Source of the DNA: Pelagomonas calceolata | Taxonomy: Eukaryota | Direction of reading: 5' to 3' | Assembly (NCBI GenBank): GCA_918797485.1 | Contig: CAKKNE010000001.1 | Span: 4,526,001-4,590,000 of the forward strand | DNA: 64,000 bases | In this document: in pieces, positions 45,006-57,689 of the stretch | Layout: each line of letters starts with the position of its first letter | Numbering within the stretch: the stretch's first letter is position 1 | Translations under genes and position numbers: made by a program | Notes under the pieces: model-generated | Databases searched by the model: none | What the model saw: the letters and a program-made list of their open reading frames with translations, nothing else | Told to the model about the DNA's origin: nothing

Positions 45006-46835
45006 TCACTCCGTCTGCGACGCCGACGACACCGACGCCGACGACGCCGTCGGGGCCGACGCGCCCGGGTAGTAGGCGCCCTGCGGCACGGTCATGGGCG
45101 CGTGCGGCGGCGCCCAGTAGCCGTGGGGCGGCGGCGGCGGCGCGTAGTAGTAGGGGTAGGGCGGCGGCGGCGGCATCTGGCCCTGCTGCGGCGGCTGCGC
45201 GTACGGCTGCTGCGGCGGCGCGTACTGGTACGGGTGCGGCGGGTAGCCGTAGCCGTAGGGCGCGTAGCCGGGGAAGTTGAACGAGAGCTGCGTCTTGCGG
45301 CGGACCGGCGCCTCGGCGTCGGTGGGAGACGCCGGCGAGGCCTCGGTCTTCGCCTCGACGGCCTCTTGTATTTGTTCCGTCACCCGGCGGACGAGCGCCG
45401 CGACGGGGCCCTCCTCCTCCACCACGACGGGCTCCGGCGCCGGCGCCGCTTCCACGACGACGACAACCTCCGGCGCCGCCTCGACCTCGATCTCCCGCGC
45501 GGCCTCCATCAATTCCGGCGCCGCCGCGTCCTCCTCGGAATTGACGATCGACGTGATCGTCCTTCTATTGAGAGTCGAGTGGCGCTTCAAAGGCACAGAC
45601 ACAACCTCGTCCTCCTCCTCCTTCATGGAATCCTCGATCGCCGTCAATCGACGAACAATCGCCGTGCGCACCGGAGTCACGACTTCCTCGGCCTCCTCGA
45701 GCGCCGCCTCGATCGTCGAGGATAAATCAGTCGTCTGCCGCTGCAACATATCTTCATCATCTTCACCCTCGACGGCCGTCGCCCTACGAACGAGCGCCCT
45801 CTGGTACAGGCCGCGCGCGGAGCCGCCCATCTTCTGCGACGGCCCGCCCTCCGTGACGCGGCGCTGCAACGGAGCCTCGACCATAGTTTTGGCACGTTTC
45901 AATTTGGCGGCCTGCAACTCGGCAACTAAACCCTCCAACCGCTGCACGGTACCTAACAACTCCTTCACTTCCTCCTCTTGCTCCGACGACCGCGCCTGTT
46001 GCAATGCAGCAAGCGTCGTATTTAATTTAGCCTGCACATCAACATCCAAGCCATCCAAGAACTGGCCCAGCAGATGCTTGGGGATGTTGTGGCGCTGCGC
46101 GACGAGGTCGTCCTCCTCGTCCTCGTCCTGAGCCAAAAATCTGGGAGAATTCACGTGCTGCTCCGTGGCCCAGATGACGTAGCGCGCGTGCATCTGGAAG
46201 ATCAGCCGGATGAAGAAGGGCCCCGACCACTTCTGCCCATAATGGTAGACCTCGATCTTGCCGTCGTCGCGCGTCGCGTACCCAAAGTTCTGGACCATCT
46301 CCCACAGAGTATTCCCAAATAAAGCGTCCGTGCACTTGAAGCGCTCCTTCTTGTTGAAGCAGACCGTGTTCGCCTCGCCGTCGGCATCTTCCTCTTCCCT
46401 TTCGTCGAACTGCATCGACACGACCATGTTGCTGATGATGGGCGGTAGGCCAAACGTGTGGACGTGGCCGTTGTCGTCGAAGTAGCCCGACCGCATCATG
46501 AAGTCGACCATGAACGGGAACACGCAGAAGATCTCCATGAAGTCCTCGTTCCCGTAAAATTCAGCTAAGGCATTCGGGTCCGCCTCGGTCACGAATCTAT
46601 GGTCGTAGAAGTGCTCCTCGCTGCCAAAGAAGGTCTGGCCCGCGACGCAGCCTACCGTTACTACTCCAGCACCAATAGCTAGTTTGGTTTGGAGCGGGCT
46701 GATCGGCTTCGACGCCGTGACGAGGCCTCTGCTTTTCATGACCCGCGCCTTGTAGGCGGCGCCGCCGGCTGTGAGGCCGTAGGCTCTTTTGCGTAAAGGC
46801 GCCGGCAGGCGGTTGAGGACGGAGCGCAGGGCCAT
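45006..46835 (-). CDS. Hypothetical protein, probably mitochondrial, with globular N-half, acidic coiled region and Pro/Tyr-rich tail
   Basis: 609-aa ORF; basic amphipathic N-terminus followed by a TM segment. Confidence 0.72.
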   Translation of the reverse strand: MALRSVLNRLPAPLRKRAYGLTAGGAAYKARVMKSRGLVTASKPISPLQTKLAIGAGVVTVGCVAGQTFFGSEEHFYDHRFVTEADPNALAEFYGNEDFMEIFCVFPFMVDFMMRSGYFDDNGHVHTFGLPPIISNMVVSMQFDEREEEDADGEANTVCFNKKERFKCTDALFGNTLWEMVQNFGYATRDDGKIEVYHYGQKWSGPFFIRLIFQMHARYVIWATEQHVNSPRFLAQDEDEEDDLVAQRHNIPKHLLGQFLDGLDVDVQAKLNTTLAALQQARSSEQEEEVKELLGTVQRLEGLVAELQAAKLKRAKTMVEAPLQRRVTEGGPSQKMGGSARGLYQRALVRRATAVEGEDDEDMLQRQTTDLSSTIEAALEEAEEVVTPVRTAIVRRLTAIEDSMKEEEDEVVSVPLKRHSTLNRRTITSIVNSEEDAAAPELMEAAREIEVEAAPEVVVVVEAAPAPEPVVVEEEGPVAALVRRVTEQIQEAVEAKTEASPASPTDAEAPVRRKTQLSFNFPGYAPYGYGYPPHPYQYAPPQQPYAQPPQQGQMPPPPPYPYYYAPPPPPHGYWAPPHAPMTVPQGAYYPGASAPTASSASVSSASQTE

Positions 46836-48260: not shown

Positions 48261-50156
48261 TTAAGAGGCGTCGCCCTTGGCGGCCGCAACGAGGCGTCCC
48301 ATCCCCGCCTCAAGCGCCGCCTGGGCCTTCCGCCGATCATCCAGTTCCTTCGCGGCGCCCTTGCCCATCTGCGCCGAAAAGGCGCCGGCGACGCGCTTGG
48401 ACCGCATCTCCGTCTTGCCGCCCCGCGAAAATAGGGCCGTGTCCGCCGCGCCCTGGCCGTCCCAGTAGCGCGGCCCGAGTCTATCAGCTCTTGATATAAC
48501 CTGGCTATGTTTCAAAGAGAAGTCGTCGGTGCCCGCCGCCGCCGCGACGGCCGCTGCCAACCCGCGTAAGAAGTCGACGTCATTCCTGTAGGTCGCGTCG
48601 GCGTGCTCGTCCGGAGCTGGCGGTTCCATATGCGCCCGCAGCCCGACGGCCGCGGCGTCGGCCGCCGCCGCGGCATCTAAATCCCGATTCTTCGCGACCA
48701 CCACCACGCCCATGGGCACCCTTCGAAAGGCCCCAGTGCCGAGATCCGTCTTCTCCACGTAGATCGCCACGTCCACACTTTTGCTGGAGAAGACGTGCGC
48801 CTCGAGCGCGGCGTCGCATTTCCCCACAAAACCCACGTGCCAGCCTAACGTCGAGCGCATGTCCGCGGCGAGGGTCGGAGTTAACCCAGCTAAGACTTTT
48901 GCTGCTGATGATCCATCACCAGTAGCTAAAACGCGTCCCGCAGCATTCCCCGTGCCGACGGCGTGCGGCGTGCCCGTCTCCACCGCAATCACAGCGCCGC
49001 GCTGGCCGTGTGTTGTGGTGTTCACTAACGCTGATGTTGTGGTTTCCAGCCGGCAGGGCGTCGCCGCCGCGTCGCCGCACGCTAATACTGATGCTCCTGC
49101 AGACAGCTCCTCGTTGACAAAGATGGGCCGCCGTCGCGTCGCGTCGTCGAGTCTCGTCGCTTTCACGACTTCCAAAGCGGTGGAACCTCGAGGAGCGCTC
49201 CGCGCGTCGCGCGCCGACACTTGTACTTGTTGTACATGTTCACCACCGGCCACAACCACCAAGTCTGCTGAACATCTCGACGTCCTCATGGCGTCGTCGG
49301 CCCGCGCGAGATAGACGGCATGCGAGGCCTTGCGATTGTCTTCGTTCGGACCGACGTAGCGGATTTGGTGCAATGCAATGACCGTGACGCCCCTTTTTTC
49401 GAGACGTTTTCGGAGCTTCTTGCCCAGGTCCTTCGGTAACCGAGCGCCGATGGGCGTCGCCTCGGGAAATACGAGAGATGCGGACTCCCCGGCCGTCTCC
49501 GCCGGCGCCGCCCGCGCGACGGCCGCCGCGAGCGCGACGGCCTGCCAGGAACCGCCCACGACACATACTTTACCACCTCTTTTCGCAACCGAAAAGGCGT
49601 CCCGCACGGCCGCGGCGTCCGCCGCCTCGCCGTGGCCCAGACATCTCACGGATTCGACACATAGTTCATCTACAAAACCGGGCGGCGGGACCGCGGCGGC
49701 CGCGCCGGTGGCCACGAGGCATTTCTTCGCGTAGGAGTACTCGTCGCCGTGCGTCGTGCGCACTTGCCTCAGTAAAGGGTTCAGCGACTCCGCCCGCGCT
49801 CGCACGCAATCGATAATGTCCGACCCGACCTCCGCACTGAGCGCCTCGCACCGTCGCACCGCGAACGCGTCCGACTCGAGCACGAGACACCGGTGTCCTC
49901 TATCAGCGTGCTTCGCGACCGCCTCGACGGCCGCCGTGCCGCTCACGCCGCAGCCAATCACTATCGAGTCGTAGCGGTTCGGGTCCGCGAGCGTGTGGCG
50001 GCGCGGGCCCTCAAATTTATCGTCGTCATCTTCCTCTAGACCGTCGTCGCACTGCAGCGGTGCTTGTTGCGCCCTCGCTTGCGTATACGATGCGGTGAGG
50101 ACCGTGCACGCGGCGGCTGCCGGTGCGCGGCGTAATAGGTGCTGCAGGAGGAGCAT
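48261..50156 (-). CDS. FAD-dependent pyridine-nucleotide oxidoreductase, AIF-like, divergent
   Basis: IVIGCGVSG, Y.KCLVATG, VCVVGGSW, ACGDAA; presequence-like N-terminus. Confidence 0.72.
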   Translation of the reverse strand: MLLLQHLLRRAPAAAACTVLTASYTQARAQQAPLQCDDGLEEDDDDKFEGPRRHTLADPNRYDSIVIGCGVSGTAAVEAVAKHADRGHRCLVLESDAFAVRRCEALSAEVGSDIIDCVRARAESLNPLLRQVRTTHGDEYSYAKKCLVATGAAAAVPPPGFVDELCVESVRCLGHGEAADAAAVRDAFSVAKRGGKVCVVGGSWQAVALAAAVARAAPAETAGESASLVFPEATPIGARLPKDLGKKLRKRLEKRGVTVIALHQIRYVGPNEDNRKASHAVYLARADDAMRTSRCSADLVVVAGGEHVQQVQVSARDARSAPRGSTALEVVKATRLDDATRRRPIFVNEELSAGASVLACGDAAATPCRLETTTSALVNTTTHGQRGAVIAVETGTPHAVGTGNAAGRVLATGDGSSAAKVLAGLTPTLAADMRSTLGWHVGFVGKCDAALEAHVFSSKSVDVAIYVEKTDLGTGAFRRVPMGVVVVAKNRDLDAAAAADAAAVGLRAHMEPPAPDEHADATYRNDVDFLRGLAAAVAAAAGTDDFSLKHSQVISRADRLGPRYWDGQGAADTALFSRGGKTEMRSKRVAGAFSAQMGKGAAKELDDRRKAQAALEAGMGRLVAAAKGDAS

Positions 50157-50435: not shown

Positions 50436-50576
50436 GTCTAGCTTTGCTCCGAACGTAAAGCAAGCGCATTTATGCCTTAGGGACCCAGCAGACAATTATT
50501 TTGGACCACAGGCCAAGTCCCGCAGCCGCCGCGGCAAGTTTCGCAGCGATATCGGGTGCTGTGCACGGCACAAACA

Positions 50577-52004
50577 ATGATGCTGGCCGCACGGGCAGCA
50601 CAGCGCGGCGCACCGGTGATTTTTGCTGCGCGAGCAGCGTCTACAACGCGGAGCCTGCGATGCCCAACGGTGCAGCGGCTTGCGGTCATCGCCGTGCCGA
50701 CGCGTCGCGGCCTCGCGACGACCTCCGCGAACAACCTCGTGCCGGCGGCTCTGAGAGGGCTGGACTACGTCGGCACCGTGGCGTTCGCCGCGTCTGGAAC
50801 GATGGTCGCGGGACACGCGGGCATGGACATCCTCGGCTGCACGATGGTGGGCACGATCACGTCGTTGGGAGGTGGTACGATTCGGGACCTGCTGCTGGGT
50901 CGCACGCCGGTCTTTTGGTTTAAGGAGATCGAGTACCTCTTGCTCTGCGTCGGCACCGCTTTGATGGCATTCTACGCGCACGACAAACTCGAGGGACCAG
51001 TAGCCGAGGAGGCGCTGTGGTGGGGCGACACTTTAGGTATCGGCGCCTTTTCGGTAGTCGGAGCGCAAGCGGCCGCTAGCGTGGGCATGGGTCCGTTGGT
51101 GGTCCCTATTTGTGGCATGTTCACGGCGACGTGCGGCGGCCTGGTCCGAGACGTGCTCTGCCGCCGGCCACCGAAGTTACTCTACTCAGCGGCGCAAGAC
51201 TCGCCGGCGGCGGCGGGCACGCTCTACGCGCCCGCAGCGTTGAGCGGCGCGAGCGCCTACGCCTTCCTCCACTTTGTGGGCGCCGGTGCGCCGCTCGCCA
51301 TCGCGCTGGGCTGCGCGACGACCGTCGGCGTCCGGACCTACGGCTACGCGCGGAACGTCAAGCTCCCGACCTACAGCGACGTGCCCGCGGGGCCCGCGCC
51401 GCGCCTCGCCGCGAACGATGCGCATCTCGTCGTGACGGCCTGGGGCCCCGACGCGACGGGCCACGTCGCCACGCTCGCAAGGGTATTGGCTGACGCGCGG
51501 GCGAACATTTCCGCCTCGAAGATTGCGACGATTGGTGATGATATTGTCGTCATGCTCGTCGTAAGCGCGCCGCGCGGGGCAAGAGCTGGTCTGGTATCTG
51601 CGGCGACGACGGCGGGCCGAGAACGCGGCCTCAAGGTGGACTGTCGCGACGTCACGCCGTCCCACGGCACGCCCCCTGCGGCAAAGGTCGCGGGGCGGGT
51701 GGCACTCCAAGGACCGGACTCGCCGGGCCTCGTCTCAAATGTTGCCGCTCTGTTATCGAAGCATGGCCTCAACATCTCCTCGCTCGACACGCGCGTCGTC
51801 GGCGTGGCGCCCGAGGGTCTCCAGCGGCGTGTGACCGAGGCGGCGCGGTCCCTCGACGCAAGAGACGCCGCGACGGACCTCTTTTGTCTCGAGGCGATCG
51901 TCACGGCGCCCGAAAAGCCGGACGCAGCGGCGTTAAAACGAGACGTGGCGGCTCTACGAAAACGGTGTCGCCTCGACGTGCTCGACGTCGTCATGGAAGA
52001 ATAG
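50577..52004 (+). CDS. UPF0126/TRIC (glycine transporter family) membrane protein fused to a GcvR-like tandem ACT domain
   Basis: LDYVGTVAFAASG, MDILG...GGGTIRDLLLG..PVFW, DTLGIGAF, TATCGGLVRDVL; then HLVVTAWGPDATGHV...ANI..S and GPDSPGLVSNVAALL..HGLNISSL. Confidence 0.85.
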   Translation: MMLAARAAQRGAPVIFAARAASTTRSLRCPTVQRLAVIAVPTRRGLATTSANNLVPAALRGLDYVGTVAFAASGTMVAGHAGMDILGCTMVGTITSLGGGTIRDLLLGRTPVFWFKEIEYLLLCVGTALMAFYAHDKLEGPVAEEALWWGDTLGIGAFSVVGAQAAASVGMGPLVVPICGMFTATCGGLVRDVLCRRPPKLLYSAAQDSPAAAGTLYAPAALSGASAYAFLHFVGAGAPLAIALGCATTVGVRTYGYARNVKLPTYSDVPAGPAPRLAANDAHLVVTAWGPDATGHVATLARVLADARANISASKIATIGDDIVVMLVVSAPRGARAGLVSAATTAGRERGLKVDCRDVTPSHGTPPAAKVAGRVALQGPDSPGLVSNVAALLSKHGLNISSLDTRVVGVAPEGLQRRVTEAARSLDARDAATDLFCLEAIVTAPEKPDAAALKRDVAALRKRCRLDVLDVVMEE

Positions 52005-52024
52005 TAGTAAGTCTAACACATACG

Positions 52025-53558: not shown

Positions 53559-55184
53559 ATGTCCACGAGCGATGCGGACGCCGCTCGCTTGGCCCAGCTT
53601 CTAAACTCGGATTCGGACTCGGACACCGCAGGGGAAGGAAACACGGACGCAGACGTGCTGCGCACATCAGAGCTGCTGAATCGGCCGTCCGACGCCGCCG
53701 AGGACGACGACGAGGACGAATTGGACCACAAACCGGCGCCGCCAGCGCCGCAGCCGTCAGTACCGGAGCCGCCAGCGCCAGAATTGCCGGCTCCGACGCC
53801 GCCCGCGCCCGAGCCGGCCTCGACGCCAGCGCCGGCACCACCCGCACCGCCGCCAGCGCCGGAGCCGTCCTCGACGCCAGCCGCAGCGCCGTCACCGCCT
53901 GCAACGCAACAACCGCGCCGCGCGTCATCAAGGGTCCTCGACCAGATCAGCTCGAAGCTCGCCGAACTGAAGGGAGACGCGCCGCCCGTCGACGACGAGA
54001 CGACGGCGCGCCGGTTTTGTGAGAGGACGGCGAAGGCCTTCGACGAAGACCGGACGCCGGAGCTGGCCATCGAGTGCGTCTGGGAGAACCAGTCAAGGGA
54101 CGACCAATCCTTAACCAACCTCGCATCGGCGGCGCGCGCGACGCTGACGCGGCATGCCATTGAGAGGCGGCCGCCGGGACCCTGGGGCCGCGCCGAGGCG
54201 CCGCGGGCCGGTATTATAAGGAGGCTGCAGCCGTTGCGGAGGCGGCCCTTCGAGGGCCGCCTGGCGCCGCTCTTCGCGGAAAGCGGGCCGCCGGACGTTG
54301 ATGGATTGCCGGATCTGTCCTGGAGGTGGCTCTCGCCCTGGCAGGTCGACGGCCGCGTCCACGGCACCGATCGAGGCGTCTCTGATATCGAAGAGGTCGG
54401 CGCGCCGGATGCCTGGTTGTATGCGCCGAAGTGGCCCAGTGATGATATGACTGGGTATAGTTATGACGAGAATGATTCAAGAGTGCGATGTCGACGGTGG
54501 GTGCGGCCGCGCGAGCGGCAGACCTGCCAGAGTTTAGTAAAGCAGCTCCTAGCCAAAAGACCCGCGACGCGGGTCGCGGCGTTACTTCGCGAGGCGAAGA
54601 GCCCTGAGGTCGACCTCGCGATGTTGGCGGCGTCGCTGGTCGAAGTGCCCGTCGTGGCGGCGCCGAGGCCGCCGCCCGAACCGGAACAAAAGCACGCGCG
54701 CGGTGTTACGGTTGACTACGTCTGGGAGAACCAGCGCTGGATTAGAGGATGGGCGCCCTGCGTGGGCCTGCGGAAGGCGCCCTTCGACGGCGCGTCGCGA
54801 CCGGCGCTCGCGGCGCTGTTCAAGCGCCACGGCGGCCCGCCGCCGCTCGAAGCCGAGCTCGCGCCCGAGGAGTCGGGCCTACCCCTCGACGACTTAAATG
54901 GGAGGGCGTCGACGTGGCGCTGGCTCGGGCCCTGGGTGCTTGATAGCACGTCGTTCGGCGCCGAGCGCGTGTCGAGCGACGGGAGTGGCGAGGGCGGCTG
55001 GATTTATCGGTTTGACTGGTCGCGCGACGGCTTGGGGTATAGCAGCGCGATGACGAAGCGGACGTTCGTGAGGTGTCGCCGGTGGGTCCGGCCGCGCGAG
55101 CCCGCGGACGTCGCGAGCCCTAGCCCCCCTGTTGAGGAGGACGTGGTGCCGGCCGCCGGTGACAAGTTGAACTTCTTCTCCTAA
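53559..55184 (+). CDS. Protein with two dysferlin (DysF/Pex24p-like) domains
   Basis: Two copies of VWENQ...W.W..PW..D...W.Y...W...VRCRRWVRPRE; Pro-rich N-terminus. Confidence 0.82.
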   Translation: MSTSDADAARLAQLLNSDSDSDTAGEGNTDADVLRTSELLNRPSDAAEDDDEDELDHKPAPPAPQPSVPEPPAPELPAPTPPAPEPASTPAPAPPAPPPAPEPSSTPAAAPSPPATQQPRRASSRVLDQISSKLAELKGDAPPVDDETTARRFCERTAKAFDEDRTPELAIECVWENQSRDDQSLTNLASAARATLTRHAIERRPPGPWGRAEAPRAGIIRRLQPLRRRPFEGRLAPLFAESGPPDVDGLPDLSWRWLSPWQVDGRVHGTDRGVSDIEEVGAPDAWLYAPKWPSDDMTGYSYDENDSRVRCRRWVRPRERQTCQSLVKQLLAKRPATRVAALLREAKSPEVDLAMLAASLVEVPVVAAPRPPPEPEQKHARGVTVDYVWENQRWIRGWAPCVGLRKAPFDGASRPALAALFKRHGGPPPLEAELAPEESGLPLDDLNGRASTWRWLGPWVLDSTSFGAERVSSDGSGEGGWIYRFDWSRDGLGYSSAMTKRTFVRCRRWVRPREPADVASPSPPVEEDVVPAAGDKLNFFS

Positions 55185-56975: not shown

Positions 56976-57689
56976 CTAGCCCGAGTCCATGATCGTGCGC
57001 CCGAACTCGGCGACGACGATGCCGTTGTACTGCGGGAACTTCTCCACGAGCTTGGCGCCGCGCTTGTCCTTGACGCGCTCCGTGTACGTCTTCATGCCGA
57101 TGTTCTTCATCTGGTCCCGGGAATACTGGAGGCAGAGGAGGAAGAAGGAGGCCTGGCCGAGCGGCGGCTCCATCCAGTTCCAGCTCCACGAGCCGACCTC
57201 GAGCCACGTCTCGAGGTTCTTCGCGTCCTCGACGTCCATGGTCACGTACTGCTCGTTGAACCACAATACGGTATGTAGGTCGAAGCACATGGGGATCGAG
57301 CCGAAGCCCGCGACGAGCGCCGCGGCGATGCCCACGCGGTACGGTAAACGAGACATGGCCAATCCAGCCTTCGCGGCCTGCTCGATCTCGCCCACCTTTC
57401 CTTCTGCTTCCACATGATCGACACCGTCGACCTTCATCACGTCCCGGACCATGCGCTCCCGGATGGCCTGGTCGTCGCCGTGCGCGCTGAGCATGAGGAG
57501 CACGTGATTCGAGTAGTCGGCGTAGGTCGTGGGCATGCGCTCGTCGTCGATTTCGGTCTTGTGCGCGAGGGCGAAGTTGCGCGTCTGCGTCGCGACGACT
57601 GGCAGCTTCTGCGCCGCGAGGCGGCTCTGGGTGCCGCGGGCGGCCAGCGAGCGGGCGCCCAGCGCGCGAAGGGATCTTGCTGCCAGCAT
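56976..57689 (-). CDS. Hypothetical mitochondrial membrane protein
   Basis: Presequence MLAARSLRALGARSL; two hydrophobic segments; Trp-rich ETWLEVGSWSWNWMEP. Confidence 0.75.
   Translation of the reverse strand: MLAARSLRALGARSLAARGTQSRLAAQKLPVVATQTRNFALAHKTEIDDERMPTTYADYSNHVLLMLSAHGDDQAIRERMVRDVMKVDGVDHVEAEGKVGEIEQAAKAGLAMSRLPYRVGIAAALVAGFGSIPMCFDLHTVLWFNEQYVTMDVEDAKNLETWLEVGSWSWNWMEPPLGQASFFLLCLQYSRDQMKNIGMKTYTERVKDKRGAKLVEKFPQYNGIVVAEFGRTIMDSG

Follow-up and report, generated by a model that had tools for sequence, protein, structure and literature searches.

A prokaryote-type TRIC pore fused to a tandem ACT pair in Pelagomonas calceolata: a possible gated glycine pore of mitochondria

Related proteins

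The prokaryotic TRICs, among them RsTRIC (5h36), SaTRIC (5wuc-5wue), CpTRIC (5wuf), SsTRIC (5h35) and E. coli YadS, share two inverted triple-helix repeats followed by a seventh helix (TM7). In bacterial TRICs the N-terminus lies outside, and the C-terminus and a lock formed by D99-R139-D140-Y155 are cytoplasmic (PMC5477506). The in vivo cargo of prokaryote-type TRICs is disputed, with structures and currents indicating K+ whereas genetics indicates glycine. In mutant fitness data from five bacteria, UPF0126 genes were specifically important for glycine use, and no phenotype was recorded for E. coli yicG (10.1101/072470). The animal TRIC-A/B proteins (TMEM38), which are counter-ion channels of the ER/SR, have the fold in common with these proteins and lack the prokaryotic lock network (PMC5477506).

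Tandem ACT domains with D-x-x-G and N-I motifs are found in the Galdieria protein ACTP, in GcvR and in SerB2. The two motifs make up the usual ACT amino-acid site, as exemplified by SerA1 and SerB2, and the SerB2 pair binds serine (PMC6630544). GcvR binds glycine, as stated in the title of Heil 2002 in the references of PMC4894688. Glycine entry to the mitochondrial matrix is reported to be served in animals and yeast by the carrier SLC25A38/Hem25.

The stretch of Pelagomonas calceolata DNA analyzed here (the window, 64,000 nucleotides) contains a gene, at 50577..52004 on the + strand, in which a TRIC pore and an ACT pair are encoded together behind an arginine-rich leader. The architecture is present in databases, where JGI auto-annotations already name both halves, and is apparently unstudied; in a literature search that took in few subscription papers, neither a TRIC-ACT fusion nor mitochondrial UPF0126 proteins were found described. 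The favored reading, which is held at a little short of even confidence, is that the protein may form an inner-membrane pore for glycine or other small amino acids, likely gated by an ACT pair on the matrix side. The original prediction had linked both halves to glycine, and this link is borne out through characterized relatives (10.1101/072470; PMC4894688); the glycine associations of UPF0126 and GcvR in turn support an ACT-gated glycine pore. Such a pore would have its proposed job, glycine entry to the matrix, in common with SLC25A38/Hem25, which belongs to the unrelated SLC25 family and, unlike the algal protein, has no ACT sensor; that this carrier already fills the role in animals and yeast counts against the glycine reading. 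With an amino-acid sensor predicted on the same polypeptide, the algal TRIC opens the cargo question to direct testing.

The pore domain

The pore domain comprises seven helices at residues 57-265 (50745..51371, +). The two-repeat UPF0126 membrane domain claimed earlier is recovered by Pfam as two stretches of PF03458 (Gly_transporter; E 4.6e-37, 126 bits, cut-off 23.5), and there is a match to the NCBIfam YadS-like family PRK10578 that falls below its cut-off. RsTRIC (5h36) is the best sequence match among solved structures (E 2.2e-32, 38% identity). An AlphaFold2 model from 131 rows, which replaced a fold from 24 rows with a pLDDT of 60, has a pLDDT of 91.7 and a pTM of 0.67, places seven membrane helices within residues 57-259, and matches 5wue with Z 31.8 and an rmsd of 1.7 over 203 residues.

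Across the prokaryotic TRICs compared, identity to the algal pore is 30-38%, with Z of 25-32 and rmsd of 1.7-2.4. The glycine kinks, phenylalanine constrictions and cytoplasmic lock are common to both, and in the algal protein they correspond to GGG98-100 (TM2) and CGG186-188 (TM5), to the pore pair F70 and F158, and to a gate network of D151, R191, D192, Y217 and R253. The C186 of the second kink is mostly G in prokaryotic TRIC rows. Unlike the prokaryotic TRICs, the algal protein is eukaryotic and has a predicted presequence, a longer TM5-TM6 loop and a C-terminal ACT pair. Membership in the animal TRIC-A/B group was considered and ruled out, as the shared fold (5egi, Z 15.2) comes with only 12-16% identity in fold alignments, the prokaryotic lock residues are present, and the animal proteins occupy another compartment.

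The TM5-TM6 loop (51159..51224, +), predicted to lie on the matrix side, is longer in the fused clade: it has 20-29 residues in 10/11 fused rows, 16 residues in 125/145 unfused eukaryotic rows and 14 in 30/31 prokaryotic rows. Its enlargement suggests a docking surface. Lysines and arginines number nine on the predicted matrix side and three on the other, a loose fit to this topology. Ahead of TM1, a [PT]R[YWF]P motif occurs in 79/145 unfused eukaryotic rows and in 0/11 fused rows; in the unfused rows this motif may have a regulatory role that was later taken by the ACT pair.

The closest solved relatives conduct K+, and for this reason the main rival to a glycine pore is an amino-acid-gated mitochondrial channel for K+ or other monovalent cations, in which the ACT pair would make matrix volume or membrane potential depend on the supply of amino acids. 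The evidence for K+ conduction comes from complementation, patch clamp and bilayer recording, and was not taken into account in the original prediction. RsTRIC and SsTRIC rescue K+-uptake-deficient E. coli and RsTRIC gives currents (PMC5143425, PMC5477506), SaTRIC is K+-selective in bilayers (PMC5477506, PMC5143425), and the pore and lock residues are all present in the algal protein. Leakage of K+ without regulation would be harmful to a mitochondrion and would thereby favor a gate on such a channel, and the SBP_bac_3 fusions described below are equally compatible with ligand gating of it. However, the sole in vivo phenotype found for the family is specific to glycine (10.1101/072470), and the cation site that SaTRIC has at its three-fold axis, N144, is R196 here, although this position is variable in eukaryotic and prokaryotic rows alike. 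A K+ channel is considered rather unlikely, though still a serious candidate.

The ACT pair and a proposed gating mechanism

The linker between TM7 and the first ACT domain (51372..51419, +) has 19-28 residues in 23/24 rows and 34 in one mis-modelled row, with P275 and L277 invariant across the 24-row alignment. It leads into ACT domain 1 (residues 282-359, 51420..51653, +, PF13740) and ACT domain 2 (residues 371-475, 51687..52001, +, PF01842), the latter with a variable insert at about residues 410-433 to which low pLDDT is confined in the AlphaFold2 model. Two ACT domains had been claimed from two motifs, and these are indeed in place, VVTAWGPDATGHV at residues 285-297 and LQGPDSPGLV at residues 377-386; Pfam finds two stretches each of ACT_6 (6.5e-16) and ACT (1.3e-9). 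In ACT1, D292-x-x-G295-x-V297 and N310 are invariant or nearly so, with D292, G295 and N310 preserved in 24/24 rows, and in ACT2 the same alignment shows conservation of D381-x-P383-G384 and N399-I400.

The likeness to GcvR in the original prediction is borne out by the fold but not by the family score. The tandem ACT fold matches GcvR (1u8s) with Z 14.8 over 170 aligned residues at an rmsd of 4.9, whereas the NCBIfam GcvR model PRK11589 (E 6.5e-11) gives the whole protein 42 bits, far below its cut-off of 267. The ACT part is similarly near to Galdieria ACTP (2nyi, Z 15.2) and to the SerB2 ACT-I/II domains (Z 13.2-14.2; 5jlp, 13.7). The algal pair shares the tandem arrangement and both motifs with ACTP, GcvR and SerB2. 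Its identity to GcvR and ACTP is 15-23%, its fold is about equally near to that of the SerB2 pair, and it differs from all three in being fused to a membrane domain and in its ACT2 insert. GcvA, the partner of GcvR, would not be expected in an algal mitochondrion.

If the pore carries glycine, a mechanism can be proposed. The leader would import the protein and would be cut near L46/A47. The seven helices would then insert with the N-terminus out and the C-terminus in, as in bacterial TRICs, which would call for Oxa1-type export of the N-terminus, and three protomers would assemble into a trimer with one pore each, as in the solved homologues. Were this topology kept, the matrix side would hold the D151-R191-D192-Y217-R253 lock together with the ACT pair and the enlarged TM5-TM6 loop, and an amino acid bound at the D-x-x-G and N-I sites of the ACT domains could shift the TM5-TM6 loop. 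ACT domains usually give feedback inhibition, and for that reason the most likely outcome would be closure of the pore at high matrix glycine or serine. Gating of this kind would match supply to glycine decarboxylase and SHMT and to one-carbon metabolism.

It is also conceivable, if improbable, that the ACT pair has no part in gating and is instead a membrane-tethered GcvR-like regulator, or a dock for matrix enzymes such as glycine decarboxylase and SHMT by which the solute would be channeled. GcvR itself acts through binding another protein (Heil 2002 title, PMC4894688), the pTM of 0.67 leaves the relative placement of the pore and the ACT pair uncertain, and a GcvR-like pair that may stand alone is encoded in the Aureococcus gene model P0018. 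Against this, the clade-specific enlargement of the loop by the gate and the narrow range of linker lengths suggest that the ACT pair contacts the pore directly.

The pair in P0018 (JL722_6330) is a further one, at about residues 460-649, 28% identical and located behind an Arg-rich stretch. It probably represents an adjacent, standalone gene that gene calling ran into this model, and is possibly a trace of the origin of the fusion. In the 64-kb window itself, a six-frame profile scan did not find a second ACT or TRIC gene.

The leader and subcellular location

A mitochondrial presequence is predicted at residues 1-46 (50577..50714, +) on the basis of composition. The first 35 residues contain six arginines and no D or E, in keeping with the Arg-rich leader claimed for this protein, and they have no hydrophobic signal stretch (maximum KD11 1.27). 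The RRGLA in which the leader was said to end occupies residues 43-47, and the first acidic residue is D63; the R-x-L/A-T end of the leader is taken to resemble an R-3 cleavage site. Leader make-up is alike in all of the fused homologues listed (22/22), with at most one D or E and a maximum KD11 of no more than 1.27. No alignment is possible among the leaders of the fused homologues, yet they are consistently Arg-rich, acid-free or nearly so, and non-hydrophobic. In 12 divergent fused homologues, the first 35 residues contain 71 R and 1 D/E in a total of 420 residues, whereas the ACT parts of the same 12 contain 263 D/E in 2274 residues; acid depletion on this scale (Fisher p 2e-19) indicates that the leader is not a product of chance. 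A crude presequence rule is passed by 86/128 unfused rows with a leader of 40-130 residues and also by 10/34 ORFs in the window, so the rule alone is non-specific and serves as a hint. From its composition, the leader is likely an organellar presequence.

A protein targeted to the plastid, or to both organelles, is decidedly improbable. Import into complex plastids requires a hydrophobic signal peptide, and this is absent from all 22 fused N-termini examined. The alternative does draw on the finding that genes shared among pelagophytes, dictyochophytes and haptophytes are mostly plastid-targeted, with dual targeting common (Dorrell et al. 2017, PMC5462543), and on the Euglena homologue considered next, which is also present in the chloroplast fraction (PMC7403612).

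The Euglena mitochondrial proteome of Hammond et al. 2020 (PMC7403612) includes an unfused homologue, EG_transcript_14694 (P0039), with a TargetP mitochondrial score (M) of 0.87. Across three sample sets its LFQ values are 0/0/0, 20-33 M and 44-54 M. Judging by the column heads and by how glycine cleavage H behaves in the published rows, the sets were taken to be whole cell, chloroplast and mitochondrion. By hand-calculated means of those rows, the mitochondrion-to-chloroplast ratio is about 1.8-fold for EG_transcript_14694, on three peptides, and about 4-fold for glycine cleavage H (GCS-H), which is enriched in the same direction. Leader composition and this mitochondrion-enriched relative together make the mitochondrial location of the original prediction likely, and the location is retained here at that grade.

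The gene and its transcript

The coding sequence (P0001, 475 residues) is intronless and runs from an ATG at 50577 to a TAG at 52004. A transcribed unit with approximate ends at 50449..52023 (+) is defined by contigs from runs X1, X7 and X2, which come from three studies and whose RNA origin is an automatic guess, given as likely. All three contigs start at 50449, end at 52023, 51999 and 52017 respectively, and contain both domains in one gap-free piece with no differences. The common 5' end, together with stops that fall within 51999-52023, amounts to transcript-like behavior. Stranded polyA reads at the locus are of low depth and have nearly all first mates on the - strand, which, as in most stranded libraries, corresponds to + strand RNA. 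In 4/4 runs no raw polyA reads cover about 51280-51400, where GC content is at its highest (73-77%), and the combination of this uncovered zone with low read depth explains why the pore/ACT junction is bridged by contigs only. The metatranscriptome run X14 yielded only short pieces, which say nothing on habitat.

Comparison with the related locus L081 gives 73 synonymous and 6 non-synonymous codon changes in the TM part and 73 and 13 in the ACT part; both the pore and the ACT pair are under purifying selection. The pore and the ACT pair belong to a single genuine gene, in one frame, as had been proposed with separate cDNAs named as the contrary outcome. The artefactual joining of two adjacent genes, to which the unbridged junction in raw reads and certain database entries broken near residue 261 might point, is extremely improbable and already largely refuted by the single open frame with its three spanning contigs, by a complete MMETSP transcript (P0004) of the fused form, and by loci L083 and L085, where the frame breaks are GT-AG introns (87 and 107 nt) and splicing them out restores a complete fusion, 93% and 88% identical. 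Close relatives (L085:1867-1973; P0013, P0014, P0131) have an intron near codon 261, shortly before the pore/ACT linker; its retention would yield a pore-only form.

Distribution and descent

Both Pfam families were present in 27/43 matches of a first homologue search. Among the best 150 of 8538 matches in a profile search, four rows cover the two domains in full and the remaining rows are fragments or pore-only, and 10/15 metagenome loci have an ACT match. The named fused members are from Aureococcus and Emiliania, and taxon labels are missing from most of the fused rows. Among named relatives the closest is from Aureococcus (56-59% identity), and an ACT fragment from Octactis speculum (P0358) is 80% identical to the fused P0022, with which it groups at 98/89. 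As found, then, the fused form is restricted to pelagophyte, dictyochophyte and haptophyte algae and their unlabelled relatives, judging from the sequences recovered.

In a 62-row tree, the 17 fused pore domains group together as a single clade (SH-aLRT 99), nested in a 49-row clade (99) from which all 13 prokaryotic rows are excluded; a careful 26-row tree supports the fused clade at 100/100. The fusion is conserved and, in the matches recovered, narrow in range. Haptophyte-like rows group with dictyochophyte-like rows in both trees (92 in the 62-row tree, 93/93 in the 26-row tree), but a forced grouping of pelagophyte and dictyochophyte-like rows is also acceptable (p-AU 0.43), so the trees are compatible with more than one direction of transfer between lineages. 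Ancient gene transfer among pelagophytes, dictyochophytes and haptophytes has been inferred before (Dorrell et al. 2017, PMC5462543), and the fusion is a non-plastid candidate marker of gene flow between pelagophytes/dictyochophytes and haptophytes.

The fusion sits within a wider eukaryotic family of unfused homologues that bear leader sequences. Among the best 120 of 1396 matches, unfused forms are found in Euglena, Tribonema, Vaucheria, Ectocarpus, Fibrocapsa, Mesostigma, Chromera and Guillardia, as well as in three red algae and the non-photosynthetic fungus Hyaloraphidium. Atlas clusters scored below 0.9 include pore homologues from Chlorophyta and Oomycota, which are leads only. No land-plant or animal names occur among the listed homologue rows, most of which are unnamed, and plant TRICs are not reported in the accessible text of Su et al. 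2017 (PMC5477506).

A broader reading is that prokaryote-type TRICs may constitute a widespread family for mitochondrial transport of glycine or small amino acids outside SLC25, covering euglenids, red and green algae, cryptophytes, ochrophytes, oomycetes and some fungi, and that one algal lineage added a GcvR-like sensor, producing a self-gating pore that moved between pelagophyte/dictyochophyte and haptophyte lineages. Taken as a whole this is on balance doubtful, though not implausible. The gene also points to a family of membrane proteins, likely mitochondrial and found undescribed in the literature searched, that is shared by many microbial eukaryotes and has members in abundant ocean algae.

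The original prediction had placed the protein in photorespiration, and this part of the argument has weakened: non-photosynthetic eukaryotes, a fungus and, as leads, oomycetes, have unfused homologues, and no land-plant member was found in the listed matches. The mitochondrial glycine carrier of plants was described as unidentified as of 2021 (PMC8146403). Given the lack of a plant member among the matches, the non-photosynthetic holders and the narrow range of the fused form, the protein is unlikely to represent that carrier. In algae, the protein may still take part in handling the glycine of photorespiration.

Prokaryotic relatives and genome context

Eighty prokaryotic UPF0126 loci were picked by two peptide patterns, and are a biased set that does not represent the closest bacterial relatives. 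No ACT fusion or neighboring ACT pair was detected in any of the 80. Among 148 neighbors from 40 of these loci there was no glycine-cleavage family; amino-acid hints among them consist of two DAO-family oxidases, one SNF transporter and one asparaginase beside SBP_bac_3. Within the limits of this sample, the missing ACT and glycine-cleavage associations count against the glycine reading. An Rfam search of 12 of the 80 loci detected two tRNAs and no riboswitch. In two of the 80 loci, both alphaproteobacterial (L069:5080-6690 and L077:147-1754), UPF0126 is fused to SBP_bac_3. These proteins resemble the algal fusion in joining the same pore to an amino-acid-type binding module, but the SBP_bac_3 module is N-terminal and outside, whereas the algal ACT pair is C-terminal and predicted to be on the matrix side. 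The SBP_bac_3 fusion is taken as independent of the algal ACT fusion and speaks for the favored reading.

In the Pelagomonas window, a 541-residue ORF downstream of the TRIC-ACT gene (53559-55181, +) has two weak Pex24p-type, dysferlin-like stretches (E 9.5e-6, below cut-off). Several nearby ORFs between 45009 and 57689 have presequence-like starts, namely those at 45009-46835 (-), 47227 (+), 48264-50156 (-) and 56979-57689 (-); given that 10/34 ORFs in the window pass the rule, this cluster may be due to chance. The ORF at 48264-50156 carries a Pyr_redox_2 domain and is arranged head-to-head with the TRIC-ACT gene, and the gene order around the TRIC-ACT gene is conserved in the related loci L081 and L082.
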